This document shows, in pieces, positions 4,383 through 44,150 of a DNA stretch of 64,000 nucleotides. A program made the position numbers and the translations under genes. Numbering within the stretch: position 1 is the first letter of the stretch; each line of letters opens with the position of its first letter. The stretch is from Nanobdellota archaeon (lineage in GTDB: Archaea; Nanobdellota; Nanobdellia; Pacearchaeales; GW2011-AR1). The notes beneath the pieces were generated by a model. The model saw only the letters and a program-made list of their open reading frames with translations. It was not told where the DNA came from and ran no database searches. The stretch is taken from positions 6,497-70,496 of the forward strand of contig JBBSXN010000003.1 in NCBI GenBank assembly GCA_038045765.1, given 5' to 3'.

Positions 4383-4509
4383 GGTGATTCCTCCCTTGCA
4401 ATATTTTAAGGCATATTTGATTTAAATACACGAGGTGTATTATGGAAGACAACAATATTATTTTTATTACTATAGTAAACTTTAAAAGATGTTTTTTTGA
4501 TTGTTCTTT

Positions 4510-5118
4510 ATGGCTAAGTTAGATAGAGATTTTGAAATAGGTTATGCTAGAGAGACTTCTAAAATATTACCTATTTTAGCCGAGACTTTTAGAGAGTTAG
4601 GTTTTGCAGATAATTTTAGAACATTAACTAATAGGAAGAATGTCACTTTCTTTAGAGATAATGAGTTAAGTGTAGTAAGTAATTTAAGATATGATCAGAT
4701 ATATTCTGAACATAATAATGATAATCCTATTGCTTCAAATGCTTATTGTATTTTTCCAGAGCATAACTTTGGGACAGGTCTAGCTTTTGTTAGAACAGGA
4801 TTAATTCATAGCGTTTTAGTTTCTGCTTTGCATGAGTTTGGGCATTTATTGGGTAAACCTTTAGATGAATTTTCAAATGAAGAAGCTAAGGCTTATGCTT
4901 TTTCTAGGGCGGGAGCAAATATAATCGCTTCTGGTAATATTGAAGGTTTAGGCAGACGTGTCTTGGAAGCTGTTAATATTAGGCCTTCAGAGAAAGAATA
5001 TCCAGATCACCATATGGCTCATGGGTTTGTTGCTAATTTAGTTGAACAAGGAATGAACCCTATGGAATTATATGAGATGTTATGTAAAAAAAGCATTTGT
5101 GTTAGTGATTCTTTTTGA
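4510..5118 (+). CDS. Putative Zn metallopeptidase (HExxH), tentatively ImmA/IrrE-like
   Basis: SALHEFGHLLG followed by NEEAKAYAFSRA resembles the HE.GH ... E.EAN.FA signature of ImmA/IrrE (COG2856). Start moved from TTG 4501 to ATG 4510, which lies 29 nt after the TATA-like box TTTAAAAG at 4481. Confidence 0.4.
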   Translation: MAKLDRDFEIGYARETSKILPILAETFRELGFADNFRTLTNRKNVTFFRDNELSVVSNLRYDQIYSEHNNDNPIASNAYCIFPEHNFGTGLAFVRTGLIHSVLVSALHEFGHLLGKPLDEFSNEEAKAYAFSRAGANIIASGNIEGLGRRVLEAVNIRPSEKEYPDHHMAHGFVANLVEQGMNPMELYEMLCKKSICVSDSF

Positions 5119-6615: not shown

Positions 6616-6834
6616 ATGCAAATAGATACGACAAAGATGAGTTCAAGAGGACAAATAGTCATACCTCTGGAAATGAGAAAAGATATTAATGAAGGAGATA
6701 AATTAATTGTAATTAGAAATGGTAACGATATTATAATAAAAAAATCTATACCTGAAAGCGCTTTATTATCTTCTAAATCTCTAGGAAAAACTTGGTTTAA
6801 CAAAAGAGAGGATGAAGCTTGGAAGGACTTGTAA
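6616..6834 (+). CDS. AbrB/SpoVT (MazE-like) antitoxin
   Basis: SSRGQIVIPLEMRKDINEGDKLIV is the swapped-hairpin AbrB/SpoVT signature. 72 aa; overlaps the toxin gene by 16 nt. Confidence 0.75.
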   Translation: MQIDTTKMSSRGQIVIPLEMRKDINEGDKLIVIRNGNDIIIKKSIPESALLSSKSLGKTWFNKREDEAWKDL

Positions 6835-7151
6835 GAGGAGATATTATTGTTATTGACTTTCCATATTCTGATTTAAGTGTTTGGAAAAGGAGACCTGTAT
6901 TTGTTGTTAAAGTTCCCAAAGGTGGAGATATTCTTGTCTGTCAAATCACCTCAGAATCTTATGAAGATTCTGTAGAAATAATTATTAGGAAAGAAGATTT
7001 TAATAATGGAAGTTTAAAAGTTGAGAGCTATCTTAGAATGGATAAGATATTCTCTGTAGAGAAATCACTTATAAAATATAAAATCGGATCTTTAAAGAAA
7101 GAAAAAATAAATTTTATTATCGATTCTGTTTGCTCTTTTCTGAAAAGTTAG
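6819..7151 (+). CDS. MazF/PemK-family toxin (mRNA interferase)
   Basis: RGDIIVIDFPYSD....KRRPVFVV......ILVCQITS pattern typical of PemK/MazF; 110 aa. Confidence 0.7.
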   Translation: MEGLVRGDIIVIDFPYSDLSVWKRRPVFVVKVPKGGDILVCQITSESYEDSVEIIIRKEDFNNGSLKVESYLRMDKIFSVEKSLIKYKIGSLKKEKINFIIDSVCSFLKS

Positions 7152-7560: not shown

Positions 7561-7601
7561 TTATAGGAAGAATTTTTAAATTACCTTTTTTAAAAGAGTG
7601 A

Positions 7602-9647
7602 ATGGAAAAAGAGGGTTCGTTACTGTCGTTTGATTCAAGTGGGAGAGTTATGCTTCCAGGACAAGAAGAGAATGAAGAAGAATTCAACAGTAATTTTGGA
7701 AGATTTAAATCTGATTTAAAGACGAGTGATTCTCTTGAATTTTTAAAACAAGACGAAGAAGAAAATAAAACTAATGGTAAATTGAATAGTATTTTTGATA
7801 ATTCTTTTTGGAGTTTGTATCAAGGAGATAAAAGGCTAGAACCTTTGAAATTTACTAATGGAAAAACTCAGGAAGATGTTGTTAGAGAAACTGTTCAATT
7901 GATAAAATCTGGAAAGAAGATTGTTTTTATTCATGGTGCGTGTGGAACTGGAAAGTCTGCTATTGCCCTTAATATTGCTCGTGAATTAGGAAGAGCAAGT
8001 ATCGTTGTGCCTGTAAAAGGCTTACAGAGACAGTATGAAGAGGATTATGTTCAAAAGAAGTATGTTCTTAAGAAAAATGGAAAGAAAATGAAAATAGCAA
8101 TGATTACTGGAAGAGATAATCATGATTCTATAATCATGCCTGGGAAAAGCTGTGCAGATCCTAATTTACCAGATACTATCAAATTTACCGATAAAAATTC
8201 TTATTTACTCCGAGATTATTATAAGAATAATCCCATAATAAATGGAAAGGATATGCCTGAAATTAGAGATTTAAAGAGAATAAGTATTGCTCCTGCAAAT
8301 CCTTATTGGAGCCCAATAGTTTCAAGTAATTATGACTTGCCTTTGAAAGATGCAAAGAAAAGAAAATATCTTGGACTAAGTGGGAAGGAATTTACTTTTT
8401 ATCAAAGAAAGAAAGGGTGCAGTTATTATGATCAGTATATTGCTTATTTAGAAGCAGATGTTATAATATTTAATTCTGCTAAATATAAAATTGAAGTGGC
8501 TTTGGATAGGAAGCCAGAGACTGAAGTGGATATTATCGATGAGGCTGATGAGTTTTTAGATAATTTTTCTAGTCAAGAAGAGATAAATCTTACAAGGTTG
8601 TATAATTCTCTTAAAACAATAAGGTCTGAAAGCGAAAGCGTTGGAAAGACTGTCGATAAGATAAATGAATTGATAGAACTTGAGGAGAAAAACAAGAAAG
8701 CTTTGGGAATTGATGAGAATAAGATATTTGAGGCTAGAGAAACTTATATTATGAAGATAATTACCTTGTTAAATAGCGATAAAGAATTGCAGTCTGAAAT
8801 AGAAATTGATGAGATGAATTATGCTAATAAAGTGCTTGAAATTGCTGAAGAGTTTAAGGAGATATTAAGTGATACTTATGTTCTATTTTCAAAGAAAGAG
8901 GATAATTTAATTGCTTCAATAGTTACAACGCAGTTATCTGGAAGATTCAAAGATATTGTTAATAAAAATAAGGCATTAGTTTTGATGTCAGGTACTTTGC
9001 ATGGAAAAGATGTTTTGAAGAGCATATTTGGTTTAGAGGATTTTGCTTTTGTTGATGCAGAGACTAGTTTTCAGGGCCAATTAGACATATTTAGAACTGG
9101 AAAGGAATTTGACTGCAAGTATGAGAGCTTTTCTTCTGGGAGACATAGTAAGAAAGATTATTTTAAAGCTTTAAATGAATGTTTGAAGAAAGCTGAAAAA
9201 CCCGTTCTAATTCATGTAAATTCTTATGATGATTTACCTAATAGTATTGATAAGCAAGAGTATCAATTGGATGAACTCATATCTAAGGAAAAGTTGTATG
9301 AATTGCAAAATGAGGATAAGACTGGTAGATTAATTTCTTTGTTTAAACAGGGAATGAATGATAGATTGTTTAGCACTAGATGTAGCAGAGGGGTTGATTT
9401 TCCTGGAGAACAGTGTAGAAGTATTGTTTTTACTAAATATCCTAATCCTAATGTTCAGGGCGTATTTTGGAAAGTTTTTCAGAAAACGCATAGTGCACAC
9501 TACTGGACTTTTTACAGAGATAAAGCAAAGAGAGAATTTTTACAAAGAATTTATAGAGGATTAAGAACGAAAGATGATCATGTTTTTATTCTTTCACCTG
9601 ATTTAAGGGTTTTGAATGCTGTTCAGGCTTTACAGAGAGAATCATAA
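7602..9647 (+). CDS. Superfamily-2 DNA helicase, XPD/Rad3/DinG-like, without an evident 4-Cys Fe-S module
   Basis: Walker A GACGTGKSAIAL; DEAD-like IIDEADEF; C-terminal SRGVDFPGEQCRSIVFTKYP like the XPD/DinG helicase C-terminal motif. Only two Cys lie between motifs I and II. Confidence 0.6.
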   Translation: MEKEGSLLSFDSSGRVMLPGQEENEEEFNSNFGRFKSDLKTSDSLEFLKQDEEENKTNGKLNSIFDNSFWSLYQGDKRLEPLKFTNGKTQEDVVRETVQLIKSGKKIVFIHGACGTGKSAIALNIARELGRASIVVPVKGLQRQYEEDYVQKKYVLKKNGKKMKIAMITGRDNHDSIIMPGKSCADPNLPDTIKFTDKNSYLLRDYYKNNPIINGKDMPEIRDLKRISIAPANPYWSPIVSSNYDLPLKDAKKRKYLGLSGKEFTFYQRKKGCSYYDQYIAYLEADVIIFNSAKYKIEVALDRKPETEVDIIDEADEFLDNFSSQEEINLTRLYNSLKTIRSESESVGKTVDKINELIELEEKNKKALGIDENKIFEARETYIMKIITLLNSDKELQSEIEIDEMNYANKVLEIAEEFKEILSDTYVLFSKKEDNLIASIVTTQLSGRFKDIVNKNKALVLMSGTLHGKDVLKSIFGLEDFAFVDAETSFQGQLDIFRTGKEFDCKYESFSSGRHSKKDYFKALNECLKKAEKPVLIHVNSYDDLPNSIDKQEYQLDELISKEKLYELQNEDKTGRLISLFKQGMNDRLFSTRCSRGVDFPGEQCRSIVFTKYPNPNVQGVFWKVFQKTHSAHYWTFYRDKAKREFLQRIYRGLRTKDDHVFILSPDLRVLNAVQALQRES

Positions 9648-9703
9648 ATCTTTATATAGGTTGGATAATATAGTATTTTATCTTATGATGAAAGGAGGTT
9701 TTT

Positions 9704-10078
9704 ATGGTTAGTAAATTATTAAAGAGAAACGGCGATAAGTTTTATTTTGTATTCAGAGTACTTATAGGTCTTTTATTCTTCCTTCACGGATGGATGAAAG
9801 TTACAGGTATTATGGATGGTAAGATTGCTTTTCTTAGTTTAATGGGGTTGGCTGCTTTCGTGGAAGTTGTTGGAGGTATATTCATTGTAGTAGGCTTTTT
9901 GACTAGACCTGTTGCTGCTATATGCGGTATACAGATGGTCTTTGCTTATTTCATGGCACATGCTTCTGGCGGATTAAGTCCATTAGCTAATAAGGGAGAG
10001 CCTGCTGTGTTGTTCTTTGTTGCGTTTCTAGTACTTGCAGCACATGGTGCTGGAAGATGGGGACTTGACAACGAGTAA
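9704..10078 (+). CDS. DoxX-family membrane protein
   Basis: FRVLIGLLFFLHGWMK, four hydrophobic helices. Strong SD-like AAGGAGG 6 nt upstream of the ATG. Confidence 0.7.
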   Translation: MVSKLLKRNGDKFYFVFRVLIGLLFFLHGWMKVTGIMDGKIAFLSLMGLAAFVEVVGGIFIVVGFLTRPVAAICGIQMVFAYFMAHASGGLSPLANKGEPAVLFFVAFLVLAAHGAGRWGLDNE

Positions 10079-10116
10079 ACAGATACCTTTTTATTCTCTT
10101 TTTTTCTTATTGTTTT

Positions 10117-11151
10117 ATGAAAAAGAAGGTGGTGATTATTGGAGGCGGTTTTGCTGGCCTTTTTCTGGCTGAATCGCTTGAAAATAAGTTTGAAGTTTTA
10201 TTAGTAGATTCAAAGCCTTTTTTTGAATTTACTCCAGGTATTTTGAGAACTATTGTTGAACCTGAACATAAAGATAAAATTCAGATTATGTATAAAAGTA
10301 TTTTAAAAAATACTAGTTTTATTTTAGATTCTGTTAAGAGCGTTACAAATAAAAAAGTTAAGTTAGATAGCGGAGATGAATTAAGTTATGATTATTTAGT
10401 CATATGCTCTGGTTCAGGATATAGAGAACCTATAAAGGAACAGAAAGTAGTTTTAGCTTCTAGAGCGAGTACTTTAATAGATGCTCATGAGCAGTTAGAG
10501 AGTGCAAAAAATATTTGTATAATTGGAGGAGGTACTGTTGGTGTTGAACTTGCTGCTGAAATTGCAGTTAAATATCATGGAAAGAAAATAAATTTAGTTC
10601 ATAGTAGGGAGAGACTAATGGATAGAGATAATCCTAAAAGCTCAGAGTATGCTTTATATTTCCTAAAAAAGAATGGAGTCGAGGTAATTTTAAATGAAAG
10701 AGTTATTACTGGAGATAAGAATAGCGTAGAAACTGATAAAGGAAGTAAGATTGAATCAGATATTGTATTTTCATGTATGGGAATAAAGCCTAATTCAGAT
10801 TTTATGACTGGAAAAATGAAGACCTGTCTTGATGAAAAAGGATTCATTAAAGTTAATGAATTTTTACAAGTTGAAGGTTTTCAAAATATGTTTTCTGCTG
10901 GAGATGTTAATAGTTGCTTAGTCGAGAAAACAGCACAAAATGCAAAGAATGAAGCTAAGATTGTGGCACGGAATATCCTTGCTTTAGAGAATGTAATGCC
11001 TTTGACTAAATATGATGAAGAAAGAACTCCAATAGTTATCAGTCTTGGAAAGTATAATGGTATTTTAGAGTACAAGAGCTTTGTCTTTACAGGAATCCTA
11101 CCTGCTTTTATGAAATGGTGTGTTGAAAAGAAAGAGATGCTAAGTCTTTAG
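10117..11151 (+). CDS. FAD-dependent pyridine-nucleotide disulfide oxidoreductase (NDH-2/AIF-like)
   Basis: Two dinucleotide folds: KVVIIGGGFAGL and ICIIGGGTVGVELAAE. C-terminal GDV motif (FSAGDVN). Confidence 0.7.
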   Translation: MKKKVVIIGGGFAGLFLAESLENKFEVLLVDSKPFFEFTPGILRTIVEPEHKDKIQIMYKSILKNTSFILDSVKSVTNKKVKLDSGDELSYDYLVICSGSGYREPIKEQKVVLASRASTLIDAHEQLESAKNICIIGGGTVGVELAAEIAVKYHGKKINLVHSRERLMDRDNPKSSEYALYFLKKNGVEVILNERVITGDKNSVETDKGSKIESDIVFSCMGIKPNSDFMTGKMKTCLDEKGFIKVNEFLQVEGFQNMFSAGDVNSCLVEKTAQNAKNEAKIVARNILALENVMPLTKYDEERTPIVISLGKYNGILEYKSFVFTGILPAFMKWCVEKKEMLSL

Positions 11152-12579
11152 GCATCTTATTTGCGATAACCATTCAGGTAACTTCTCAGAATAGTTATTT
11201 CTAGCATCTGGTATCTTTATGTGAGCTTCAGAATTATAGTTAGAACTTAGAATTATTCTCTCCCAAGAAACGCTGTCAAGATTTGAACCTCTTCCTAAGA
11301 GTGCTTGTTCAATTATTTTTCCTCTGGTATTTGCTCTTGTGTTAGTTGGAGGATTCATTATAGCGTTTCTTATTTCTTCTTCAGAAGTTAATGTTCTAAA
11401 ACCACCACATTCTCTTAAATCTGAAAATAAATCGCCTCTGTTTAGAGAATGATATGCTAAATTTACACTTTGGACTTCATCATGGTCTGGAAGAAGACAT
11501 TCATTTTTCATTTTTTCTGTTAATAGGTATCTCTTAGTTACCCAATCTAAAACTCCATAAAGAAGGGCAGGTTCTTCTCCAAATCTTTCTAGCCCTGCTA
11601 TAACTTCTTCTGTTAGTGCTATTGTAACATCTATTTCTGAATCCATTCCAGATAATACTGATCTAGCTCTATCGTTGTATCTTCTTAATAGAGCTAATGC
11701 AGATCTATCTTCAATAGGCATACTTGGAAGATACCATGTTGAACAGATTTCATGAGGATTATTTTTCCTCTGAGGTATAGTAGTTATATGAACTAAGTCT
11801 TTTAGTGCTTCTGTTGATCTATAATCTATATGAGGTAGGCAGCCGTTTTCTGCTAATGAAATCATATTTCTCATAAATCCTGCCTTTAGCCATTCTGCTG
11901 AATCAAGCATATTACTGTCATTACTTGTGTGATGGAATAAACTTTCATTTTCATTTTCTCGGAAGTGTTCATTTTTATAGTCTAGTAGGGAAACTTTTGT
12001 TTCAGTAGGTGTTGCTTCAGGATGAATTTGAGGATCTAAATCTTGATGAATGCCTCTTATTTTTTTAGCTCTTTGAGAAATATTGAACTCTCCTGAAGTT
12101 CTTAGATTTCCTGAACCAGACAATAATTTTTCAAGAACAGCAGGTAATATTAAATTTCCCCTTCTACTTAGAGGAATACATGTTGTATAATTCATATGTG
12201 ATCCCCAAGTATTTTCTTCAAATCTTGGATCTGGGTAAGTTATATCTAAGTTATTTTTATAGATGGTTAGATTAGGATTAGTTTCCGCGCTACTTACTAT
12301 TATTCTTTCTATAGCTCTTTGCCAGGTAAGAAAATCTTTTAATGTTCTAACTTCAGGTGTGCATATTTCCCACATATACTGATCAAGGTAGATTCTTCCA
12401 CCATTTGTTAACCAGAAATCTTTATTTTCATTTCTTAAATTATCTGTTTTAGCTTTAAAGGCTATTTTTGCTAAGTTTGTTTCAATACAACTAGTTTTTA
12501 TTATATCAACTTCCTTACTAGATTGAATACCTAATTCAGTTTCCAAACCCATTACATCTGGTGGAGATCGTCTTGTCAT
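11140..12579 (-). CDS. PafA/Dop-family (Pup-ligase/deamidase fold) carboxylate-amine ligase homologue, copy 1
   Basis: GLETELG; NGGRIYLDQ..EICTPE; YKNN.D...WGSHMNY; LSGSGNL; ISQRAKKI; SNDSNM; LDWVTKRYLL; NLAYHSL; EEEIRNAIMNPPTNTRANTRG. Same order as in actinobacterial PafA (recalled sequence). Start set to ATG 12579, 29 nt from TATA-like TTAAAAAC. Confidence 0.75.
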   Translation of the reverse strand: MTRRSPPDVMGLETELGIQSSKEVDIIKTSCIETNLAKIAFKAKTDNLRNENKDFWLTNGGRIYLDQYMWEICTPEVRTLKDFLTWQRAIERIIVSSAETNPNLTIYKNNLDITYPDPRFEENTWGSHMNYTTCIPLSRRGNLILPAVLEKLLSGSGNLRTSGEFNISQRAKKIRGIHQDLDPQIHPEATPTETKVSLLDYKNEHFRENENESLFHHTSNDSNMLDSAEWLKAGFMRNMISLAENGCLPHIDYRSTEALKDLVHITTIPQRKNNPHEICSTWYLPSMPIEDRSALALLRRYNDRARSVLSGMDSEIDVTIALTEEVIAGLERFGEEPALLYGVLDWVTKRYLLTEKMKNECLLPDHDEVQSVNLAYHSLNRGDLFSDLRECGGFRTLTSEEEIRNAIMNPPTNTRANTRGKIIEQALLGRGSNLDSVSWERIILSSNYNSEAHIKIPDARNNYSEKLPEWLSQIRCLKT

Positions 12580-12627
12580 TAAAAAAAACAAAAATCAGAT
12601 GTTTTTAATCTTTTAGCTATTTCTTAA

Positions 12628-13989
12628 TTATCTTAAAATATGAGTGCTTTCTAAATCTGTAATTATCTTTTGGAAACACTCGTGGCTATATTCCCAAGGG
12701 TCTGGCATAGATATGGTTTTATCGCTACTTCCATAAACTAAACTGATTCTATCCCAAGTTGAAAATTCTATTTTCCAATCAGGATTAATTCTTCTAGTTA
12801 ATTCTGTAATAACGTTATGTCTTAACAATGCTCTAGTTTTAGGAGGATTTTTCATCGCTTCAGTTATTTCTCTTCTTTCAAGCAGCTTTTCTACTAATCC
12901 TAATTCCTCCATTTGAGCAAAAATACCTTCTTCATCTAATCTGCTATAATCATATGCATTGCTTTGTACAAGAGGATGTGTATATGGAAGGCATTCTCTT
13001 TCCTTAAACTTCTTAAGGTTGGTAAATAATGTCGCCCAATCTAATCTACCATATAGAGAATTAAGATCATTACCTGCTCTTTCCAGTCTTTTAAGAGCAT
13101 CATCCCACAAATCTATACAAAAATCGACTTCTGAATCTAATCCCTTAAGATTTTTTCTTGCAGAGTCATTATATGCTCTTGCAATTTTAATTGGATCTTT
13201 CCATTCTCTTTCCGTCCCTTTTAACCTCCATGAGTCAGTCTGTTTTATAATATCTTTTATATCTTTTATTGCATATCTTTTTTTATAATTAATTTTCGGT
13301 AGCAATTCGTGTTGGTGAAGCAAGTATACAAGTCTTCTAGCCCCTCTTTTTAAGAATAATGCATATTCACACATATTTGGATCGTTGTTACTGCATTGAA
13401 TTCTTTCATAATTTTTGAACTCTCCTAGATTTTCTTCAACTTTTTCAATTAATCCTCTTTCACCTGGTCCGTTTTCATCACGGCTTGCAAAGCGGTTTAT
13501 TCTGTCTATATCTTGAGCTGATTGTGCTATTCTAAACTTTCCTTTTTGAGATAAGTGACCTGCACCAGTCCATAATTTTTCTATTATTGTAAAAAGTATG
13601 AATGGGTCTTGCTTATCCTCACTTATTGGGACAAAATAATTATCGTGAGCTCCAAAAGAATTGCTTCTTTTACCACTATCTCTTACATTCTTATAAAATA
13701 ATGGCTTATTTCTATCTCCAAAATAATCTAAAAGTAATTTTTCCATTGCTTTTTCGTAACGTACAGAATCTCTTACTGAAGCACATTCAGGAATACATAT
13801 TTCAGGATGAGCGCAATCTTCATAAATGAGACCACCATTGTTAAAAAAGCTTAAATCTTCATGCAAGACTTCCCCAATATACTTATCTCTAAAACTTGCG
13901 TAATCTACTCTTCCTTTTCTCATTTCTATTCTTTTATCTAATTCTATTCCTATCTCGATGTCTGCGCCTAAAATTATTCTAGTTTCCAT
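12628..13989 (-). CDS. PafA/Dop-family (Pup-ligase/deamidase fold) carboxylate-amine ligase homologue, copy 2
   Basis: GADIEIG; NGGLIYEDCAHPEICIPEC; FYKNVRDSG..SFGAHDNY; WTGAGHL; IAQSAQDI; NNDPNM; IDLWDDAL; LDWATLF; EITEAMKNPPKTRALLR. Confidence 0.75.
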   Translation of the reverse strand: METRIILGADIEIGIELDKRIEMRKGRVDYASFRDKYIGEVLHEDLSFFNNGGLIYEDCAHPEICIPECASVRDSVRYEKAMEKLLLDYFGDRNKPLFYKNVRDSGKRSNSFGAHDNYFVPISEDKQDPFILFTIIEKLWTGAGHLSQKGKFRIAQSAQDIDRINRFASRDENGPGERGLIEKVEENLGEFKNYERIQCSNNDPNMCEYALFLKRGARRLVYLLHQHELLPKINYKKRYAIKDIKDIIKQTDSWRLKGTEREWKDPIKIARAYNDSARKNLKGLDSEVDFCIDLWDDALKRLERAGNDLNSLYGRLDWATLFTNLKKFKERECLPYTHPLVQSNAYDYSRLDEEGIFAQMEELGLVEKLLERREITEAMKNPPKTRALLRHNVITELTRRINPDWKIEFSTWDRISLVYGSSDKTISMPDPWEYSHECFQKIITDLESTHILR

Positions 13990-14041
13990 TTAATCTAGAG
14001 AGCTTTTGTAACCTTTTTAATAATTATGTATTTAGAATATT

Positions 14042-15325
14042 TTACTTTTTAGCTTCTATCTTAGTTATATTATGCATATATGGAACTAGGACTTTTGGAA
14101 TAGTTATGCTTCCATCTTTATTTTGATTGTTTTCTAGTATAGCTACCATTATTCTAGATGTTGCTAGTGCTGTGTTGTTTAATGTGTGGACAGAACCTTT
14201 GTTTCCTTGTTTGTCTATGAATTTTATTCCTATGTTTCTTGCTTGATAGTCTGTGCAGTTTGTGAGAGACATTATTTCTCCATATTCTTTTGTTGTCGGG
14301 CGATAGACTTCAAAGTCTGCTGAACGATATTTCCAGTCTGCTAAATCTCCTGAACAGATTTCAATGATTCTATAAGGCAAATCAAGATCTTGTAGAATAT
14401 CCTCTGTGTTTTTCATTAATTCATCATATATTTTTATTGAGTCATCAGGGTGGCAGAACGCAAATTGCTCCACTTTATTGAATTGGTGGGTTCTCCATAA
14501 ACCTTTATCATTTATTCCGTGTGCTCCCACTTCTTTTCTAAAGCACATTGTGTAAGAAAAGTATTTTTTAGGCATTTCCCAAGACTTTAATGTTTGTTCT
14601 GCGTGCAATGCTAGAAGAGCTTGTTCTGAAGTGCCAATTAAATGTAGGTCTTCATCTTTTATTGAATATACTGATTGTGCAATTGCTGCTTTATCCATGG
14701 AGGCGAAGATTTCCTTCCCATGAAGCATTAAAGGCGGTTCAATGTATGTGTAGCCTTTTTTATACATAGAATCAATTGTAAATCTTATTAGTGCTTGATT
14801 TAACAAAGCTAGTTCATTTTTTAAGTAATAGAATCCTGAGCCTGAAGCTTTAGCTGATGCGTCAAAATCTGCTAAGTCTAAGCTTTCTGCTAATTCTACA
14901 TGATTCTTTATAGGAAAGTCAAATTTCTTTATCTTTCCCCATTTTTTTATTTCTACGTTTTCAGAAGCGTCTTTTCCTAAAGGCGTTTCTTTAGACATTA
15001 TGTTTGGAAGTTCAGATAACATTGAATTTATCTCTTCCATTAATTTATTTGATTTTGCTTCTACCTTTTCAATTTCTTCTGGGATGCTTTTTGCTTTTTT
15101 CAATAGTGCTTTTGCATCTTTCTTAGCCTTCATTGCCTCATTTATCTGCTTTGAAATTGTGTTTCTTTCCGATCTTAATTCATCTGCCTGGCTTTTGAGT
15201 TTTCTCCAGGAAGTATCTTTTTCAATTATATTATCAACTAGCTTTAGCTTTGGAGTTTGTGCTTTTCTTTTTATGTTATTTATTACTATTTCAGGATTTT
15301 CTCTTATTAGCTTTATATCTATCAT
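14042..15325 (-). CDS. serS: Seryl-tRNA synthetase
   Basis: N-terminal coiled-coil arm; class-II motifs (GTSEQAL, FRKEVGAHG, RTHQFNKVE, YGEIMSLTNCTDYQARN). 427 aa. Confidence 0.9.
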   Translation of the reverse strand: MIDIKLIRENPEIVINNIKRKAQTPKLKLVDNIIEKDTSWRKLKSQADELRSERNTISKQINEAMKAKKDAKALLKKAKSIPEEIEKVEAKSNKLMEEINSMLSELPNIMSKETPLGKDASENVEIKKWGKIKKFDFPIKNHVELAESLDLADFDASAKASGSGFYYLKNELALLNQALIRFTIDSMYKKGYTYIEPPLMLHGKEIFASMDKAAIAQSVYSIKDEDLHLIGTSEQALLALHAEQTLKSWEMPKKYFSYTMCFRKEVGAHGINDKGLWRTHQFNKVEQFAFCHPDDSIKIYDELMKNTEDILQDLDLPYRIIEICSGDLADWKYRSADFEVYRPTTKEYGEIMSLTNCTDYQARNIGIKFIDKQGNKGSVHTLNNTALATSRIMVAILENNQNKDGSITIPKVLVPYMHNITKIEAKK

Positions 15326-20419: not shown

Positions 20420-21319
20420 ATGGCCTATACAGAAATTAAACAAGTTAAATCAAGGAAATATAGTTATCGAGTTCAATCTGTAAGAAATGGTAAAGAGGTC
20501 AATAAGAAAAGAGTATATTTGGGAGTTGATTTAAATGAAGCTGAATTAATTGAAAAAGAAAAAGAGGCTGATAAGAAGTTAAATTTGCTATCGACCTTAC
20601 TATCTAATGAAGAGGAGAAGGAACTTCATAAATTAAAAAAATTATATTTATCTCAATCTAAAGAAAATCTTGAAAATAGATATGAGGCTTTTATATCTCT
20701 TTTTACTTATGATTCTACTAATATAGAAGGCAATACATTAACTTTACAGGAAACTTCACAATTACTATTTGAAAATATAACTCCTAGAAAGTCTTTAAGA
20801 GAGATAAATGAAGTAGTTAATCATAAAAAAGCTTTTGATTATCTTTTAGAAGAAAAAGAGGATGTTTCAAAAAAGATTATCTTAAAATTGCATGAGTTGG
20901 TTACTAAGGATACTCTAAAAGAGGAATTATTGTCACAAGTTGGTAAATATAGGAAACTTCAAGTTTTTATTAGAGGAGTTAATTGGCTACCCCCAAAACC
21001 TAAAGAAGTATCTAAAGAGATGCAAATTCTATTATCTTGGTATTCTAAGAATAAAAATACGTTACACCCATTAATTTTAACAGCCTATTTCCATTCAGCT
21101 TTTGAAACAATTCACCCATTTATAGATGGAAATGGTAGGGTGGGCAGACTTTTGATGAACTTTATTTTAAGAAAAAATAAATATCCTATGATAAATATTC
21201 CTAATAAAAGCAAATATATTTATTATGCTGTTTTAGAGTCTGCTCAAGTTAAAGGAGATTTGAGACCTTTGGTTAAATTCCTATTTGATTTAATGAAACA
21301 AGAAAGCTTAAAATTCTAA
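20420..21319 (+). CDS. Fic-domain protein (AMPylase family)
   Basis: Canonical Fic motif HPFIDGNGRVGR. Confidence 0.85.
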   Translation: MAYTEIKQVKSRKYSYRVQSVRNGKEVNKKRVYLGVDLNEAELIEKEKEADKKLNLLSTLLSNEEEKELHKLKKLYLSQSKENLENRYEAFISLFTYDSTNIEGNTLTLQETSQLLFENITPRKSLREINEVVNHKKAFDYLLEEKEDVSKKIILKLHELVTKDTLKEELLSQVGKYRKLQVFIRGVNWLPPKPKEVSKEMQILLSWYSKNKNTLHPLILTAYFHSAFETIHPFIDGNGRVGRLLMNFILRKNKYPMINIPNKSKYIYYAVLESAQVKGDLRPLVKFLFDLMKQESLKF

Positions 21320-21323
21320 ATTT

Positions 21324-22319
21324 TTAACTAGATTTCTTATCAAATTCTCTGTCTTTTTCATTGAAACCGCCTACTACTGTGATTTCTCCTTTAATTGGAG
21401 GATGTGATTCATATTCAATTAGTTTAAAGTCATCGATTGTGAAATCGTCAAGATTCTTTTTTTCTGGATTAATCCAGATTTTTGGAAATGGTTTTGGTTC
21501 TCTAGATATTTGTTCTTTGACTTGTTCGTAATGATTTCCATAAATATGTGTGTCTCCTAGAAAATGTATGAATTCTCCTGGTTGGTATCCACATATTTGA
21601 GCTAGAATCATTGTGAGCAAGGAGTATGATGCTATATTGAATGGGACTCCTAAGAAAATATCGCAACTTCTTTGATATAGTGCTAATGATAGTTTTCCGT
21701 TTGTTACATTTATGTTATAGAATGCGTGGCAGGGCGGAATTGCCATTGTAGAACCAGGTTCTGACATTTCATATATGAATTCAGGATTCCAAGCAGAAAC
21801 ACAGACATGTTTTCTATCTGGATAATTTTTACTTTTCCAAACTGCCCAAGCTAATTGATCTATTAATTTTCCATTCGATGCTTGCCATTTTCTCCACTGT
21901 CTTCCATATACTGGACCTAGTTCTCCCCACTTTTGAACGAATGGATCTGATTCTGGAAGTTCTTTTATCTTTTTGATTAATTCATCCTGAGTTAAAGCAG
22001 GAACTTCTCCTTTTTCCATTGCTTTTTTGTATGCTTTGAAAGGCCAATCATCCCAGATATGAACTTCATTATCTACAAGATATTTTACATTTGTTGCACC
22101 TTTTATGAACCAAATTAATTCATGTATGATTCCACGCATAAATACTTTTTTAGTTGTTAGAAGCGGGAAGCCTTTTGATAAGTCATATCTCATCATTCTT
22201 CCAAAAACAGATTTTATTTTTGTTCCTGTTGCGAAATCCGTCTTTTCAAAACCATTATCCATAATATCTTTTAATATGTCTAGATATTGATGTTCTGGAT
22301 GTCTATCACTCTTTTCCAT
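21324..22319 (-). CDS. thyA: Thymidylate synthase ThyA (long form with an insertion)
   Basis: FPLLTTKKVFMRGIIHELIWFIKG.TN; GPVYGRQWR; PPCHAFY (catalytic Cys); DIFLGVPFNIASYSLL; GDTHIY. 331 aa. Confidence 0.9.
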   Translation of the reverse strand: MEKSDRHPEHQYLDILKDIMDNGFEKTDFATGTKIKSVFGRMMRYDLSKGFPLLTTKKVFMRGIIHELIWFIKGATNVKYLVDNEVHIWDDWPFKAYKKAMEKGEVPALTQDELIKKIKELPESDPFVQKWGELGPVYGRQWRKWQASNGKLIDQLAWAVWKSKNYPDRKHVCVSAWNPEFIYEMSEPGSTMAIPPCHAFYNINVTNGKLSLALYQRSCDIFLGVPFNIASYSLLTMILAQICGYQPGEFIHFLGDTHIYGNHYEQVKEQISREPKPFPKIWINPEKKNLDDFTIDDFKLIEYESHPPIKGEITVVGGFNEKDREFDKKSS

Positions 22320-22436: not shown

Positions 22437-22472
22437 AATAATACTTATATAATCTATTTATTGAGTAGGGAA

Positions 22473-24212
22473 ATGATTAGTTTAATTGCAGGTGTTGCTA
22501 AGAATGGAGTTATTGGAAATAAGAATGAATTGCCTTGGCATATAAAAGAGGATTTACAGAGGTTTAAAGTTTTGACCCTTGGAAAACCAGTCATTATGGG
22601 GAGGAAAACTTTTGAGTCTATAATCATGGTGCTTGGAAAACCTTTACCTGGAAGGACAAATATTGTAATTACTACAAATCCAAATTATAAATTTGAAGGA
22701 TGTGTTGTTTGTAATTCTATTGGAGATGCTTTGAAAAAAGCCAAGGAGATAAGCAGTGAAATTTATGTTATTGGTGGACAGAAAATTTATGAGCAGACTA
22801 TTAAATTAGCTGATAAATTGGAGATAACTTCCGTTCATAAAAACTATGAAGGAGATGCTTATTTTCCTAAGATAGATGAATCTTGGCAGGAATCAAAGAG
22901 AGAAGATAAAGATAGTAATGGCATAACGTTTAGTTTTATTACTTATGAGCGAAAAAAGAGTAAGAAAATTGTTGGTAAGAGTTTGAAGGATGTTGATTTT
23001 GATTCTTATATTTTGATAAGAAAAGAAAAAGAGAGACAGCAGAAAACAATAAATTTGATTCCTTCTGAGAATTATGCTTCTGAAGCAGTTATGGAGGCTA
23101 GTGGAACAAGTTTGATAAATAAATATGCTGAAGGTTATCCTCATAAGAGATATTACCAAGGAAATAATGTTGTTGATGAAGTTGAAGATTTAGCTATTGA
23201 AAGAGCTAAAAAGATATTCGGTGCTGAGCATGTTAATGTTCAGTCTTATTCTGGAAGTCCTGCTAACTTTGCAGTTTTCTTAGCTTTATTGCAGGCAGGA
23301 GATAAATTTATGGGGCTTGATTTAGGATGTGGAGGTCATTTGACTCATGGAAGTCCAGTTAATTTTTCAGGACAGATTTACAAGCAAATACCTTATACTG
23401 TTGATAAAGAAACTGGCTTATTGAATATGAAAGAGATTAGGGAAATAGCTTTAAGAGAAAAACCTAAAATGATTATTTCTGGATTATCTGCTTATCCTAG
23501 AATTGTTGACTTTAAAGCATTTCAAGATATTGCTGAAGAGGTTGGAGCAGTTCATCTTGCTGATATTTCCCACATAGCTGGATTAGTTGCTGCTGGAGTC
23601 CATCCAAGCCCATTTCCATTTACAGATGTTGTTACAACTACTACTCATAAGACTCTTAGAGGGCCAAGGGGAGCAATAATAATGTGTAAGGAAAAATATG
23701 CAAAGCAGATTGATAAGGCCGTTTTTCCAGGATGTCAGGGAGGACCTCATATGAATTCAATTGCTGCTAAGGCTGTTGCATTTAAGGAAGCTTTAAGTGA
23801 TGAATTTAAGGAATATGGTCAGCAGATTGTTAAAAATGCAAAAGTTCTTGCCCATACTCTTTCTAAGAATGGAATAAAATTAGTTACTGGTGGAACTGAA
23901 AATCATCTTATTTTAGTTGATTTAAGAGATAAGGGAATTGGATTAGGGAAACAAGTTGCTGTTGCTCTGGAAGAAGCAGGTATAGTCTTGAATGCAAATT
24001 CAGTTCCATTTGATACTTCAACTCCATTCAAACCGAGCGGAGTAAGACTTGGGACACCAATGGTTACAACTAGGGGAATGAAAGAAAGTGAGATGGAGAA
24101 GATTGGAAATTGGATATCTGCTATTATAAGAGATGTTAATAATTCAGAGCTTAAAGCAGCTATAAAGAGAGATGTTGAAGAGTTGTGTGCTAAGTTTCCG
24201 ATTTATAATTAA
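22473..24212 (+). CDS. folA-glyA: Fused dihydrofolate reductase - serine hydroxymethyltransferase
   Basis: N-terminal ~165 aa carry DHFR motifs ([43 protein letters not shown]). After a KKSKK linker comes a full SHMT ([60 protein letters not shown]). Start set at ATG 22473 (track uses TTG 22461). Confidence 0.85.
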
Positions 24213-38925: not shown

Positions 38926-40746
38926 TTACTTCTTTTTATAAAGTAGAACAAAAAGTAATAAACATAATAGTATAATGAGCAATAGTAATGTAGTTGGTAA
39001 GATCCAGATCAAGTTAATGCTATTACCTTTCTTATTTGCTACATTATTGCTTGTGGTATCTTCATACTCTGTGTAATCTACCGGAGCTTTTTTATCTTGA
39101 GGTGTTAAATCTGGGAATTTCTTATTGTTTGTTGTAGGAACATTTCCATTGTTATTTCCATTGTTATTTCCTCCATTACCTCCTCCGCCTGAACCTCCAG
39201 ATGTTGTTGTGTTAATTGTAAAGGTAATTGTTGAGGTTATTGTAAAGCTAGGATTACTTGCTCTTACTGTTAAATTGTATGAACCATTTACAAGTCCTGT
39301 TAAAAATACTGGGCTTGTATATATGAAAGTTTGATTATTTAATGTGTAGTTTATTGAAGTTGCGTTTGGACTTGATATGTTCAATAAAACTGAAGTTGCG
39401 TTGTATGATGTGTTGTTTAATGGAGAACTTATTGTGATTGTAGGTATTCCATAAACTACTGAACTATTTATTGCGAATGTAACTGATGAAGTAGTTGTTC
39501 CTAACGCATTTACTGCTGAAGCTAAGAGTGTGTGTGAGCCAGGTAATAATGTTACATTTACTGGAGAGGTGTAATTTATGTTAGCTCCTGAATCTAAGGA
39601 ATAGAATACTTGTGTTGCATTTGCTGTTGAAAGTGAAATTAGAACTGCAGGAGTGTTGTATGTTATGTTTAAAGGAGATAATATCGATATTGTAGGGAGA
39701 GTTTGATTTGCTGTTAGTGGCAATGTAGAAGTTGTGCTTGTGACAGCTGTTGTATTTATATTTCCTGAATTGTCTTTTGTTAAAACTGATAATGTATAAG
39801 TTGTGTTTGAAATCAAACCAGTAGCTGTATAAAATGGACTAGATGTGTTTAGAACATTTACTCCATTTAATGATATTATAGATTGATTGAAGTCTGAATT
39901 TGATGGATTTGTCCAATTCCAAGTTATTGTTGTTAGGTTTCTATTTGTAGCTGATAAACTAGATATTGTTGAAGGTGGAGTTGTATCTACTGGAGTTGTT
40001 GCAGTTATTGTGAAGTTAGATATTTGATTTGTAGTTGGAAGAGTATTTACACATAAATCATTATTTGTTGTTGAAGATACACTCAATGTATGATTTCCTG
40101 CTGGTAGTGTGAAGTTGAATTGTGCAACTCTAGAACTTGAGAACGGCACAGAGAGAGTTTTTGTTTGAGTTGTTCCATTTGCTGTTGCAGTTACATTAAT
40201 GTCTATGTTGTAATATTGTGATATTTGCGAAGGAATTCCTGCAAGTGGACCTGAGTTATTAATTGGAGAGCTTGTTGAGAGAGTTACTGTTGCATTGTTT
40301 CCATTTACAGTTATAGTGGGTGTAGAAAGAGAAGTTCTACAATCTCTTTGTTTTGTTAAGTAATTTGTGAATGGACCTACTGGATCATTTGCATCTGTTC
40401 CTGCCCAGTTTGCAGATACTTCAAAAGGAATATATCCTTTCTTGTAGAAATAAATACCATATCCGAATGGTGATTGAAGCGTTGTTGAATAGTTTAATAT
40501 TGTATTGTCTGTTGTAACATTGAATTCCCCATTGTATAGTATGCCTTGAGTTGTTGAACAAGTTGCATCATTACATATTACTCCAAATATTGATACGCCG
40601 GTTACAGGAGTTGAAGTAGCAATTAAGTTTCCAGATGCATCTATTTCTGCATATCTGAATATATTGCTTTCAAATCTTTCTGCAATTACAAATGTAGATA
40701 ATAAAATAAGTGCTAAAATTGTTAAAATTATAAATTGATTTTTCAT
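38926..40746 (-). CDS. Secreted, C-terminally anchored surface protein with FN3-like module (paralogue of 1573..2763)
   Basis: Start set at MKNQFIILTILALILLSTFVIA (signal peptide). The track's 26-codon N-terminal extension overlaps the upstream gene. TTPPSTISSL..ITWNWTNPSNSD..YTATGLISNTTYTLSVLTKDNSGNIN; many N-x-S/T sites; C-terminal TM plus KKK. Confidence 0.65.
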   Translation of the reverse strand: MKNQFIILTILALILLSTFVIAERFESNIFRYAEIDASGNLIATSTPVTGVSIFGVICNDATCSTTQGILYNGEFNVTTDNTILNYSTTLQSPFGYGIYFYKKGYIPFEVSANWAGTDANDPVGPFTNYLTKQRDCRTSLSTPTITVNGNNATVTLSTSSPINNSGPLAGIPSQISQYYNIDINVTATANGTTQTKTLSVPFSSSRVAQFNFTLPAGNHTLSVSSTTNNDLCVNTLPTTNQISNFTITATTPVDTTPPSTISSLSATNRNLTTITWNWTNPSNSDFNQSIISLNGVNVLNTSSPFYTATGLISNTTYTLSVLTKDNSGNINTTAVTSTTSTLPLTANQTLPTISILSPLNITYNTPAVLISLSTANATQVFYSLDSGANINYTSPVNVTLLPGSHTLLASAVNALGTTTSSVTFAINSSVVYGIPTITISSPLNNTSYNATSVLLNISSPNATSINYTLNNQTFIYTSPVFLTGLVNGSYNLTVRASNPSFTITSTITFTINTTTSGGSGGGGNGGNNNGNNNGNVPTTNNKKFPDLTPQDKKAPVDYTEYEDTTSNNVANKKGNSINLIWILPTTLLLLIILLCLLLFVLLYKKK

Positions 40747-40747
40747 T

Positions 40748-41878
40748 TTATGGTCCTCCTCCAGGAGCTCCAGATCTTCCACCTGAACTTCCAGGCGCTC
40801 CACCAGGACCAGAAGTTCTTCCACCAGAACTAGTTAATATTCCGTTTAGATCATTATTTTCATTCAATGCAGTTCCTATTCTTATTGCTCCTGCTCCCGC
40901 AGCATGTCCTAATAACATTAAACAAGTATTTGCTCCTTCTCTTGAAGTTGTAAATGTTATTTGGTTTGGTTTCAATCCAACTTCAGCATTTGGACCCACA
41001 ATTAGTCCCTTTGCATTATTTACTGAGATTACTGCTGTTCCATATTGATGTGGGAAGACTATAATATCTCCTCTTGCTTTTGCAAGAATATCATATGTTG
41101 CTCCAACTTTCTCTTCTAAATTACCAGCATTAAATGTTTTTTCAACTACTCTTGTATTTGGAGGAAGTTTTCCACCTTGTGAATAATCTATTCCTGAACT
41201 TACCGCTTCAAAACCACCAACTCCAACTGCGCCAGGTATTCCTGCAATAAGGTATCCTATTCCTCCTGCTCCTCCAATCTTTAAAGGAGTTCTAGTATCT
41301 GTTATCTTATGATTTACAGTTAGATTTTTTTCTCCAAATGTTAGAGTTACATTAAATTTGTCAGAAGCTTTTTTATGATTTATAGAATCTTCTTGGTTTA
41401 CAGTTACTTTTACTCCTGCTCTAGTTGGATCTGTTGTATAGTTTTGAAATCCAGAAAATACTGCATCAGATAATTGTCTTCTCGCTGCTTCTGTTGAAGG
41501 TGCTAAATTGAAACTATATGTTTGTGCGCCTGCTGGAATTCTATTTTGAATTGCTCTTAGTGTTCCATATTGAGAATTTAATGGGCTGTCTGTGCTTAAA
41601 GGAGCATAAACTTCCAATTTACCAGAACCGTTGAATATGTGAACATTTCCTGAATAAGAAGGTAATCTATTGTATTGTTTTGCTAATTCTTGTTTTTCTT
41701 CAAAAGACGGTTGTGCTGGTAAATTATATTCAGGTCTTGCTGATGGAGTTGTTAATGCAGTTCTAGCTGTCTTTGATAATCTTGAAGTATCTGCTGATGT
41801 ATATTCGTTCTTAGTTACACAACCAGTTAAAGCGGCAGTTAAACCTGTTAATGCGACTAGCGATCTTAATGATTTCAT
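40748..41878 (-). CDS. Putative lipoprotein with a Gly-zipper-like segment and a Gly/Ser/Pro-rich tail
   Basis: MKSLRSLVALTGLTAALTGC has a classic L-T-G-C lipobox. GGAGGIGYLIAGIPGAVGVGG. Tail GGRTSGPGGAPGSSGGRSGAPGGGP. The stop is 1 nt from the next start. Confidence 0.6.
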   Translation of the reverse strand: MKSLRSLVALTGLTAALTGCVTKNEYTSADTSRLSKTARTALTTPSARPEYNLPAQPSFEEKQELAKQYNRLPSYSGNVHIFNGSGKLEVYAPLSTDSPLNSQYGTLRAIQNRIPAGAQTYSFNLAPSTEAARRQLSDAVFSGFQNYTTDPTRAGVKVTVNQEDSINHKKASDKFNVTLTFGEKNLTVNHKITDTRTPLKIGGAGGIGYLIAGIPGAVGVGGFEAVSSGIDYSQGGKLPPNTRVVEKTFNAGNLEEKVGATYDILAKARGDIIVFPHQYGTAVISVNNAKGLIVGPNAEVGLKPNQITFTTSREGANTCLMLLGHAAGAGAIRIGTALNENNDLNGILTSSGGRTSGPGGAPGSSGGRSGAPGGGP

Positions 41879-44001: not shown

Positions 44002-44150
44002 TTTTTGTTTTATCACCTCTAAACTCTTACTTTACCTTGCGTTTTTCGATTATATAAAGGTTTCTAGTGTTGTCATTTTAAAGAAGTTATAATATTTTCA
44101 AAATTTTTCGTTCATAAACTTTAAAAAGAAGACTTTTATTATTATATAGA

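Follow-up and report, generated by a model that had tools for sequence, protein, structure and literature searches.

We know of no bacterial analogue of ubiquitin tagging other than pupylation. Reviews place pupylation in Actinobacteria and a few other bacterial phyla, with Pup always encoded beside its ligase. The locus described here raises the question of what two tandem genes of the Pup ligase family do in an archaeal genome. Both genes, referred to as copy 1 and copy 2, lie in a window of 64 kb (the whole stretch of DNA that was analysed), which covers about 14% of a 468,634-nt contig (JBBSXN010000003.1) from a DPANN "Nanoarchaeota" metagenome-assembled genome (MAG) from groundwater. The reading that we favour, with somewhat better than even confidence, is that copy 1 and copy 2 are diverged paralogues of a Pup-less PF03136 branch of glutamine-synthetase-fold carboxylate-amine ligases. 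This branch, whose members have no Pup-like neighbour and are called solo proteins below, appears to be native to DPANN archaea, in a fixed slot directly downstream of serS, and to occur also in bacteria of the candidate phyla radiation (CPR).

Family membership, fold and active site

The two open reading frames (ORFs) follow each other on the minus strand, as an earlier note on this DNA had stated:

11140-12579, minus strand: copy 1 ("type 1"), 479 aa from ATG, PF03136, NCBI MEK6910409.1, the hypervariable one of the pair
12628-13989, minus strand: copy 2 ("type 2"), 453 aa, PF03136, NCBI MEK6910410.1

For copy 1, an upstream TTG at 12591 is also listed as a start; the NCBI record uses the 479-aa form. 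The spacer between copy 2 and copy 1 measures 48 nt and is without any ORF, the two proteins share 30% identity, and NCBI names both 'proteasome accessory factor PafA2 family protein'. All motifs listed in the earlier note were found in the correct order in both translations and in the alignment. The series runs from GLETELG in copy 1 (GADIEIG in copy 2) at the N terminus over NGGRIYLDQYMWEICTPE in copy 1 (NGGLIYEDCAHPEICIPE in copy 2), GSHMNY (GAHDNY; GCHENY in PafA and Dop), SQRA (AQSA), NDSNM (NDPNM) and LDW to NPPTNTRA (NPPKTRA) at the C terminus, and it far exceeds chance expectation.

The PF03136 Pup_ligase model matched both proteins significantly, in agreement with the family named in the earlier note, copy 1 with 172.4 bits (E 2.2e-50) over profile positions 2-440 of 441 and copy 2 with 164.1 bits (E 7e-48) over positions 68-437, against a cut-off of 25 bits. 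The scores for the PafA equivalog TIGR03686 (114.2 bits for copy 1 and 111.5 bits for copy 2; cut-off 551.3) and the Dop equivalog TIGR03688 (114.7 and 114.5 bits; cut-off 492.3) remained far below their cut-offs, which argues that copy 1 and copy 2 are members of the family that are orthologous to neither PafA nor Dop. Among sequences of known structure in the PDB, the best matches were Dop (E ~1e-19) and then PafA (E 1e-10 to 1e-13). Structure prediction of each paralogue alone with AlphaFold2 yielded models with a predicted local distance difference test score (pLDDT) of 87 for copy 1 and 88 for copy 2 and a predicted template modelling score (pTM) of 0.90 for both. The fold is PafA/Dop-like in each case: in Foldseek, the copy 1 model matched Dop with a template modelling score (TM) of 0.78-0.82 and PafA with 0.71-0.76, and the copy 2 model matched Dop with 0.80-0.82 and PafA with 0.72-0.80. 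These superpositions span about 480-520 aligned columns and recover the two-domain fold, a glutamine-synthetase-like beta-sheet cradle with a small C-terminal domain.

PafA and Dop differ in the Dop-loop, a conserved stretch of 40-65 residues before strand beta2 that defines Dop and is missing from PafA (PMC8599861, PMC7947786); with its conserved Trp it occurs in all Dop orthologues (PMC8599861). In the alignments of the window proteins to the three Dop structures, the first aligned Dop residue is 83/84, opposite residue 55 of copy 1 and residue 48 of copy 2, at beta2. PafA, in contrast, aligns from the N terminus (residue 9 of copy 1, residue 3 of copy 2), which argues for a PafA-like beta1-beta2 architecture. 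No Dop-loop was found in copy 1 or copy 2, and the alignments leave no room for one.

Residues were mapped on Acidothermus Dop and on a 218-sequence family alignment. Both copies keep the core of the active site, i.e., the GhExE strand (GLETE in copy 1, GADIE in copy 2), Y64/Y56 (copy 1/copy 2, here and below), the catalytic Asp D66/D58 and, together with it in columns that are invariant or nearly so over a 56-sequence alignment, E71/E63, E76/E68 and H128/H115. N130/N117, E204/E186, D221/D203, K232/K214, W439/W412 and the C-terminal R..R are also common to both, and a Lys sits at the R227 position in each. In all, copy 1 retains E13, E15, R62, Y64, D66, E71, E76, H128, N130, R170, K202, E204, H216, D221, R415 and R419, and copy 2 retains D10, E12, Y56, D58, H61, E63, E68, H115, N117 and R178. 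Substitutions occur at H69M, E129M, R196V (with K195 adjacent) and R214L in copy 1 and at R54L, R157S, H198Q, K321L and H349S in copy 2, all of them at residues that do not vary in 46 bacterial homologues; across the solo group, the R54 position is variable. Conservation in the bacterial homologues reaches 90% or more in 88 columns, of which 52 are retained in copy 1 and 46 in copy 2.

The alpha-loop region of PafA contacts the targets, and the Arg of its TT..R motif is essential in M. smegmatis PafA (PMC7947786). Together with PafA R201/Dop R221, this motif holds the last residue of Pup (PMC8599861). The TT pair is missing in both window copies; the Arg is kept in copy 2 (R178), and copy 1 has V196 in its place with K195 adjacent. 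In both models this region has low pLDDT and shows no confident helix. The consensus of the solo group retains S..TT..R.I.N.R.E and R.H.I.GD.NM, including the R201/R221 equivalent. The subtype to which copy 2 belongs, with the extra losses R157S and H198Q, was found in two configurations of the slot, each time as one half of a pair; type-2-like proteins, among them P0003, which stands alone, retain SQRA and R.HH. A catalytically altered partner is a possible role of copy 2, as this subtype is seen only paired and copy 2 has lost the equivalents of R170, H216, K349 and H377, which solo relatives retain.

These data also bear on the possibility that the solo branch joins the carboxylate of a free amino acid or metabolite to an amine, as GCS2/YbdK and glutamine synthetase do. 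No protein tag is encoded nearby, the equivalent of the nucleotide-contacting R90 varies over the solo group, and YbdK/GCS2 and gamma-glutamylcysteine ligases are the next-best structural matches. However, their TM reaches only 0.39-0.49 (YbdK-type E ~1e-6) compared to 0.71-0.82 for Dop/PafA, and neither a Pfam nor a sequence-level match to GCS2/YbdK was obtained for copy 1 or copy 2. In addition, the C-terminal domain specific to PafA/Dop (NPP.TRA...W) is kept, as is the Pup-binding alpha-loop TT..R in the solo consensus, and a 45% difference between strains amid mostly 95-100% identical neighbours would be rare for a housekeeping metabolic enzyme. We consider a ligase of small molecules or peptides decidedly improbable.

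Loci with and without a Pup-like ORF

Homologous loci were fetched with a profile of DPANN proteins from GTDB genomes and JGI metagenomes. They comprise solo loci (the window, L001-L010, L015, L016, L020-L029, L032-33, L035, L037 and L038) and Pup-linked loci (L012-14, L017, L018, L030, L031, L034 and L036). The taxon labels of several MAGs are possibly unreliable, e.g., those of "Methanosarcinales" binchicken bins and of the "Woesearchaeota" contig L017, which has a GC content of 0.49. Searches for Pup and proteasome genes covered the 64-kb window and the flanks of relatives up to 10 kb.

The window contains no credible ORF of at least 20 aa ending in G[QE]. A hidden Pup was found neither with a regular expression for this terminus nor in a listing of all intergenic small ORFs of the window, and likewise neither among its ORFs of at least 60 aa ending in Q or E nor with a hidden Markov model (HMM) built from five Pup-like ORFs of related loci. 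A proteasome subunit or AAA ATPase was not detected among the 39 window ORFs, mostly larger ones, that were scanned with Pfam, or in the syntenic gene tables. Thus, the ORF scans and the Pfam search upheld the view that the window holds no Pup, 20S proteasome or Mpa/PAN gene, such as cluster together in the Pup-proteasome system (Mpa/ARC - Dop - Pup - PrcB - PrcA - PafA). None of the approximately 20 sampled solo loci, which belong to DPANN archaea and to bacteria of the CPR (Parcubacteria, Taylorbacteria), contained a Pup-like ORF within flanks of up to 10 kb by C-terminal regular expression and HMM. Iyer et al. (2008, PMC2588565) found Pup next to a PafA homologue in every one of the bacterial lineages that they examined, a rule which the solo loci break.

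The Pup-linked loci, whose proteins are more distant homologues of the pair, have two PF03136 paralogues and, between or beside them, an ORF of 75-96 aa ending in GGQ or GGE. These Pup-like ORFs have the motif LLD.LD...Y.Q.GGQ in common. The Pfam Pup model did not match any of the five that were compared with it at E <= 0.01, so that they would be Pup-like only by size, position, this motif and the C terminus. At L017 (a 'Woesearchaeota' MAG, JACQMZ010000033.1, GC 0.49), positions 7592-12804 encode an Mpa-like AAA ATPase, a PF03136 protein, an 87-aa ORF ending in GGQ, and proteasome beta and alpha subunits; either a DPANN archaeon here has a genuine Pup-proteasome system, or the contig is bacterial and was mis-binned. 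At L014 (6019-14338, Saccharibacteria MAG CAZHOB010000006.1), the genes for an Mpa-like AAA ATPase and two PF03136 proteins occur with an ORF of 75 aa that ends in GGE; next comes a LonC-like protease, which stands in place of 20S proteasome subunits. A CPR bacterium may thus couple a Pup-like tag to a Lon-type protease. Two Pup-adjacent paralogues (L012 9893-11641 and L013 7384-9348) are 582-654 aa long and have large insertions, which recall the transmembrane insertions carried by the Pup ligases of Plesiocystis and Rhodopirellula (Iyer et al., 2008, PMC2588565). The CPR solo loci L011 (1541-3376), L035 (3635-5861) and L037 (2618-6709) have common neighbours, identified by eye from their N-terminal sequences, namely apparent metal-uptake genes (ZIP-like, or Zur with ZnuABC-like), a thioredoxin-like protein and a conserved membrane protein of 360-390 aa; this may reflect shared ancestry rather than functional linkage.

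The family is large: an exhaustive profile search with a limit of E <= 1e-3 returned 4,749 cluster representatives, and 672 remained with a limit of E <= 1e-30. A distance-based neighbour-joining tree of 218 sequences with 100 bootstraps grouped the pair with neither PafA nor Dop. Type 1 (copy 1 with P0006-P0010) and type 2 (copy 2 with P0001-P0004 and others) form one clade, which nests among other solo DPANN/CPR proteins, with PafA, Dop and the Pup-linked proteins all elsewhere in the tree. Since bootstraps for exact clades were poor, they were replaced by tests of separation between named reference taxa. Type 1 was recovered in 100/100 bootstraps; in 97/100, copy 1 and copy 2 stood together apart from all Pup-linked proteins, from PafA and from Dop, and in 94/100 also from the other solo proteins. 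The latter two values argue that the pair diversified within DPANN archaea.

A division of labour between a PafA-like ligase and a Dop-like deamidase, to which the earlier note had likened the pair, was rejected. Neither copy has a Dop-loop or reaches an equivalog cut-off, the two group with each other as mutual nearest relatives, and in relatives the slot holds a single gene or other pairings.

Canonical pupylation from dispersed genes is the strongest alternative to a Pup-less branch. It would require that a Pup-like tag, a 20S proteasome and PAN or Cdc48 are encoded elsewhere on the contig, with one copy ligating the tag to lysines and the other deamidating or removing it. The fold and core residues match those of PafA and Dop, copy 2 and the solo consensus retain the Arg that binds the C-terminal carboxylate of Pup (PMC8599861), Pup-like cassettes do occur in some MAGs labelled Woesearchaeota and Saccharibacteria, and the part inspected amounts to 14% of the contig. 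However, Pup adjoins a PafA homologue in all the bacterial lineages that Iyer et al. studied (PMC2588565), and neither the window nor about 20 solo loci with flanks of up to 10 kb yielded a Pup gene. The missing Dop-loop, the existence of single-gene relatives, the mutual closest relationship of copy 1 and copy 2, and the presence of the same branch in CPR bacteria with flanks lacking proteasome genes likewise speak against it. Therefore, dispersed pupylation appears unlikely to us, although it deserves to be taken seriously.

Archaeal context and the variable slot behind serS

The pair is flanked by serS and an oxidoreductase gene, as described earlier, and each gene is preceded by a TATA-like element:

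10117-11151, plus strand: Pyr_redox_2 oxidoreductase, flank of copy 1
14042-15325, minus strand: serS, flank of copy 2
12603-12609, minus strand: TATA-like ATTAAAA, beginning 30 nt upstream of the copy 1 ATG, read from the sequence
14015-14021, minus strand: TATA-like ATTAAAA, beginning 32 nt before the ATG of copy 2, within the 52 nt that separate copy 2 from serS
12581-12594, minus strand: T-run TTTTTGTTTTTTTT, after the copy 2 stop and ahead of the start of copy 1, read from the sequence

Across the window, TATA-like hexamers peak at -30 to -21 before the starts, being present there in 53% of 62 genes compared to 13-19% in other bins, which implies mostly leaderless mRNAs in this organism. 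The element of copy 1 is a probable promoter of its own, giving a leaderless transcript. That of copy 2, which at -32 falls just outside the peak bin, is a putative promoter, and the T-run is a possible archaeal oligo-T terminator for copy 2. The assertion that each gene has its own TATA box agrees with these positions.

The family is overwhelmingly bacterial, and its nearest relatives outside DPANN belong to CPR bacteria, Nitrospirae and Verrucomicrobia. This might suggest a bacterial fragment that was mis-joined into an archaeal contig during assembly or binning. However, the pair has the AT-rich composition of its neighbours, as claimed before, with a GC content uniform at 0.29-0.36 across the window; the TATA elements are of archaeal type and near the modal distance, and the window encodes aIF2-gamma, aIF5B, CysRS and further translation genes. 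Moreover, the order S10 - Na/H exchanger (NhaP) - serS - [PF03136] - Pyr_redox - DoxX - XPD-type helicase - PIN is found again in assemblies that were made independently, with material from different sites and through different pipelines. The syntenic contigs come from Hainich groundwater, two further ENA projects, the lake MAG VGKT01 and JGI sample 3300020200, and from the NCBI assemblies GCA_016196285.1, GCA_005801925.1 and GCA_030648375.1. This synteny, together with GC and promoter elements, rules out a chimeric or contaminant segment, so that we give an artefact practically no weight. The contig is archaeal, as the earlier note had held, and the slot is inherited vertically in Pacearchaeota- and Woesearchaeota-like lineages.

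The content of the slot varies even between close relatives. A sister strain is represented by an 85,793-nt Hainich contig (L001), on which the copy 1 counterpart occupies 11410-12804. At the protein level, 17 of 22 shared flanking genes are 94-100% identical and copy 2 is 99.6% identical, whereas copy 1 is only 55% identical. DNA identity in sliding windows of 150 nt is about 98-100% on the right, over copy 2, serS and beyond, and 53-78% on the left across copy 1. The position of this break and the slot variants of other relatives are:

~12520-12550 (near 12535): identity breakpoint with the sister strain, at the start of the copy 1 gene
L021 2392-5273; L023 2699-5482; L006, L025, L005, L010, L020, L015: slot variants on related Nanoarchaeota/Pacearchaeota contigs

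The low identity of copy 1 suggests that the allele was replaced by recombination or that it diverged very fast. Comparably divergent are only a PemK-like toxin (35% identity) and a 205-aa ORF (63%). The toxin lies with a small upstream ORF, AbrB/MazE-like by eye, at 6616-6834(+) and 6819-7151(+), and the 205-aa ORF at 4501-5118(+); together with copy 1 they are the main variable genes of the region common with the sister strain. In the relatives, at least six configurations of the slot occur, with either a single paralogue or two, drawn from four or five protein types. Paired are type 2 with type 1, type 2 with a P0066-type protein, and type 1 with a P0119-type protein in reversed order; type 1, a type-2-like gene and a CPR-like type with an N-terminal extension stand alone. 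Thus, the slot behaves as if its content were hot-swappable. The extended Pacearchaeota type (L010 9854-11206, L020 8001-9353) carries the CPR-typical extension (...PLF...P....I.GTE.E.G), as compared with the CPR proteins of L011, L016, L035, L037 and L038, and groups with Taylorbacteria and Parcubacteria proteins in 74/100 bootstraps, which hints at gene exchange between CPR and DPANN.

Among six type 1 proteins, variation is concentrated at residues 25-48, the site of the loop in Dop, at 109-120, at 181-216, the alpha-loop region, and at 421-456, and the catalytic strands are 75-95% identical. Such a pattern could be expected if the proteins were fast-diversifying effectors or immunity factors that covalently modify or de-modify proteins of hosts, rivals or viruses, and this would account for the allele swapping and the changing content of the slot. 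Copy 1, at 55% identity amid conserved neighbours, is matched only by the PemK-like toxin and one ORF; the slot has its six or more configurations of four or five types, and the variability of copy 1 is concentrated at 25-48, 181-216 and 421-456. On the other hand, copy 2 is highly conserved between strains, the position of the slot is stably inherited without mobile-element or defence genes fused to it, and recombination with a diverged population could give the same pattern without diversifying selection. The PADLOC-DB v2 defence models did not match copy 1 or copy 2 at E <= 0.01, and no relative of either was found on viral contigs in IMG/VR; on these grounds, membership in a defence system and viral carriage were rejected as candidates. 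A role in conflict therefore seems very unlikely.

Several other genes of the window were recorded. A 583-aa ORF at 22461-24212(+) fuses dihydrofolate reductase (DHFR) and serine hydroxymethyltransferase (SHMT) domains and adjoins a thymidylate synthase gene (21324-22319, minus strand), giving a fused enzyme of the folate/thymidylate cycle. A Fic-domain gene lies at 20420-21319 and a gene for a transglutaminase-core protein at 50822-51526(+). For the XPD/DinG-type helicase at 7602-9647(+), typeIV_DinG models of PADLOC gave a match at E 7e-41. At 38926-44016(-), three large ORFs in succession encode 632, 376 and 713 aa, two of them without a Pfam match and the third with only weak coiled-coil matches. 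Beyond the left end of the window, only large surface proteins were added.

Proposed function and relation to known systems

As members of a Pup-less branch, copy 1 and copy 2 are most likely ATP-dependent carboxylate-amine ligases, as predicted from their sequences. Each enzyme would bind Mg-ATP, phosphorylate the carboxylate of a substrate and pass it to an amine, or carry out a related amidase reaction. The carboxylate would most likely be the side chain of a Glu-like C-terminal residue of a protein or peptide, because the solo consensus keeps TT..R and the R201/R221 equivalent that hold the last residue of Pup. The substrate would be other than a neighbouring canonical Pup. Instead of a PafA/Dop division of labour, the pair would represent one among several exchangeable states of the slot, each with one gene or two, and copy 1 would be a fast-diversifying or recombining allele. 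Its variable segments include loops around the active site, which suggests a shifting specificity for targets or partners.

Several points weigh against this reading. Neither window copy has the two Thr of TT..R, and the Arg remains in copy 2 only. Either copy could be inactive or use different chemistry, since residues 100% conserved in 46 bacterial homologues are lost. The mechanism, as with all mechanistic statements made here on the two proteins, is predicted from homology. The pattern of variability in copy 1 is only suggestive because loops usually vary most in any protein. The window covers 64 kb of the 468,634-nt contig, and a Pup-like gene, a proteasome or PAN could lie elsewhere in the genome. 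Furthermore, all solo proteins were separated from all Pup-linked proteins in only 53/100 bootstraps, and the exact membership of clades of 18, 55 and 65 leaves was recovered in 0-17/100, which leaves the wider 'solo clade' weakly supported and provisional.

A more far-reaching proposal, which we consider rather unlikely, is that DPANN archaea and CPR bacteria have in common a Pup-independent PafA-like branch with an unrecognised tag or substrate, or with a function that preceded Pup. In Nanoarchaeota/Pacearchaeota, this branch would have expanded into a hot-swappable slot for one or two paralogues, and loops near the active site would be diversifying between almost identical strains, as if the enzymes covalently modified changing proteins of hosts, rivals or viruses in these obligate episymbionts. 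A conserved PafA-like branch free of Pup and proteasome in DPANN and CPR, the two large radiations of ultra-small symbiotic prokaryotes, bears on the origin of Pup ligases and their role before Pup, and also on whether archaea have a second protein-tagging chemistry, not based on the beta-grasp fold, alongside SAMP/Urm1. If the genes instead encode ordinary Pup ligases with a distant Pup gene, pupylation extends to Archaea. The strain-level hypervariability of copy 1 provides a handle on the population biology of DPANN archaea.

With PafA (TIGR03686; PDB 4B0T, 4BJR), the window proteins share the Pfam family, the two-domain fold (TM 0.71-0.80), the GhExE strand, the catalytic Asp and the Glu/His metal ligands, as well as the C-terminal NPP.TRA..R..W domain and the short beta1-beta2 connection without a Dop-loop. 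They differ from it in sequence (about 19-21% identity), in the lack of Pup, Mpa and proteasome genes beside the pair, in the absence of the TT pair, and in the replacement of the equivalents of H97/E156 in copy 1 and R205/H241 in copy 2. Dop (TIGR03688; PDB 4B0R, 5LRT, 7OXV, 9CKU) is the best PDB match in both sequence and structure, and the equivalents of its D94 (catalytic), Y92, E99, E104, H155 and N157 are kept; unlike Dop, the window copies have no Dop-loop, and neither has kept H95.

Outside Actinobacteria, Pup-linked homologues of PafA/Dop include those of the 'UBact'-type systems. The homologues of Nitrospirae, Verrucomicrobia, Planctomycetes and deltaproteobacteria are likewise divergent PF03136 proteins (24-30% identity to the window proteins), often with two paralogues. 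However, a Pup gene ending in G[EQ] is always adjacent to them (PMC2588565), whereas the window pair has its ORF-free 48-nt spacer. GCS2/YbdK and glutamine synthetase have the beta-sheet cradle of the superfamily and ATP-dependent acyl-phosphate chemistry in common with the pair (PMC2588565) but reach a TM of only 0.27-0.49 and lack the PafA/Dop C-terminal domain.

The closest counterparts are the solo PF03136 proteins of Pacearchaeota/Woesearchaeota and of CPR bacteria (Parcubacteria, Taylorbacteria). No paper on archaeal or CPR homologues turned up in the literature searches, and all that is on record of the other solo proteins are database entries under the name 'PafA2 family protein'. In this respect the suggestion of an undescribed system stands; it needs to be toned down as NCBI already labels both window proteins as PafA2 family and many similar Pup-less homologues exist in DPANN and CPR. 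The solo proteins resemble copy 1 and copy 2 in having no Pup-like neighbour, in their neighbour-joining grouping and, in DPANN, in the serS slot. They have a near-canonical active site (HxE, GAHENY, SQRA, TT..R, R.H), whereas types 1 and 2 of the window are derived and paired.

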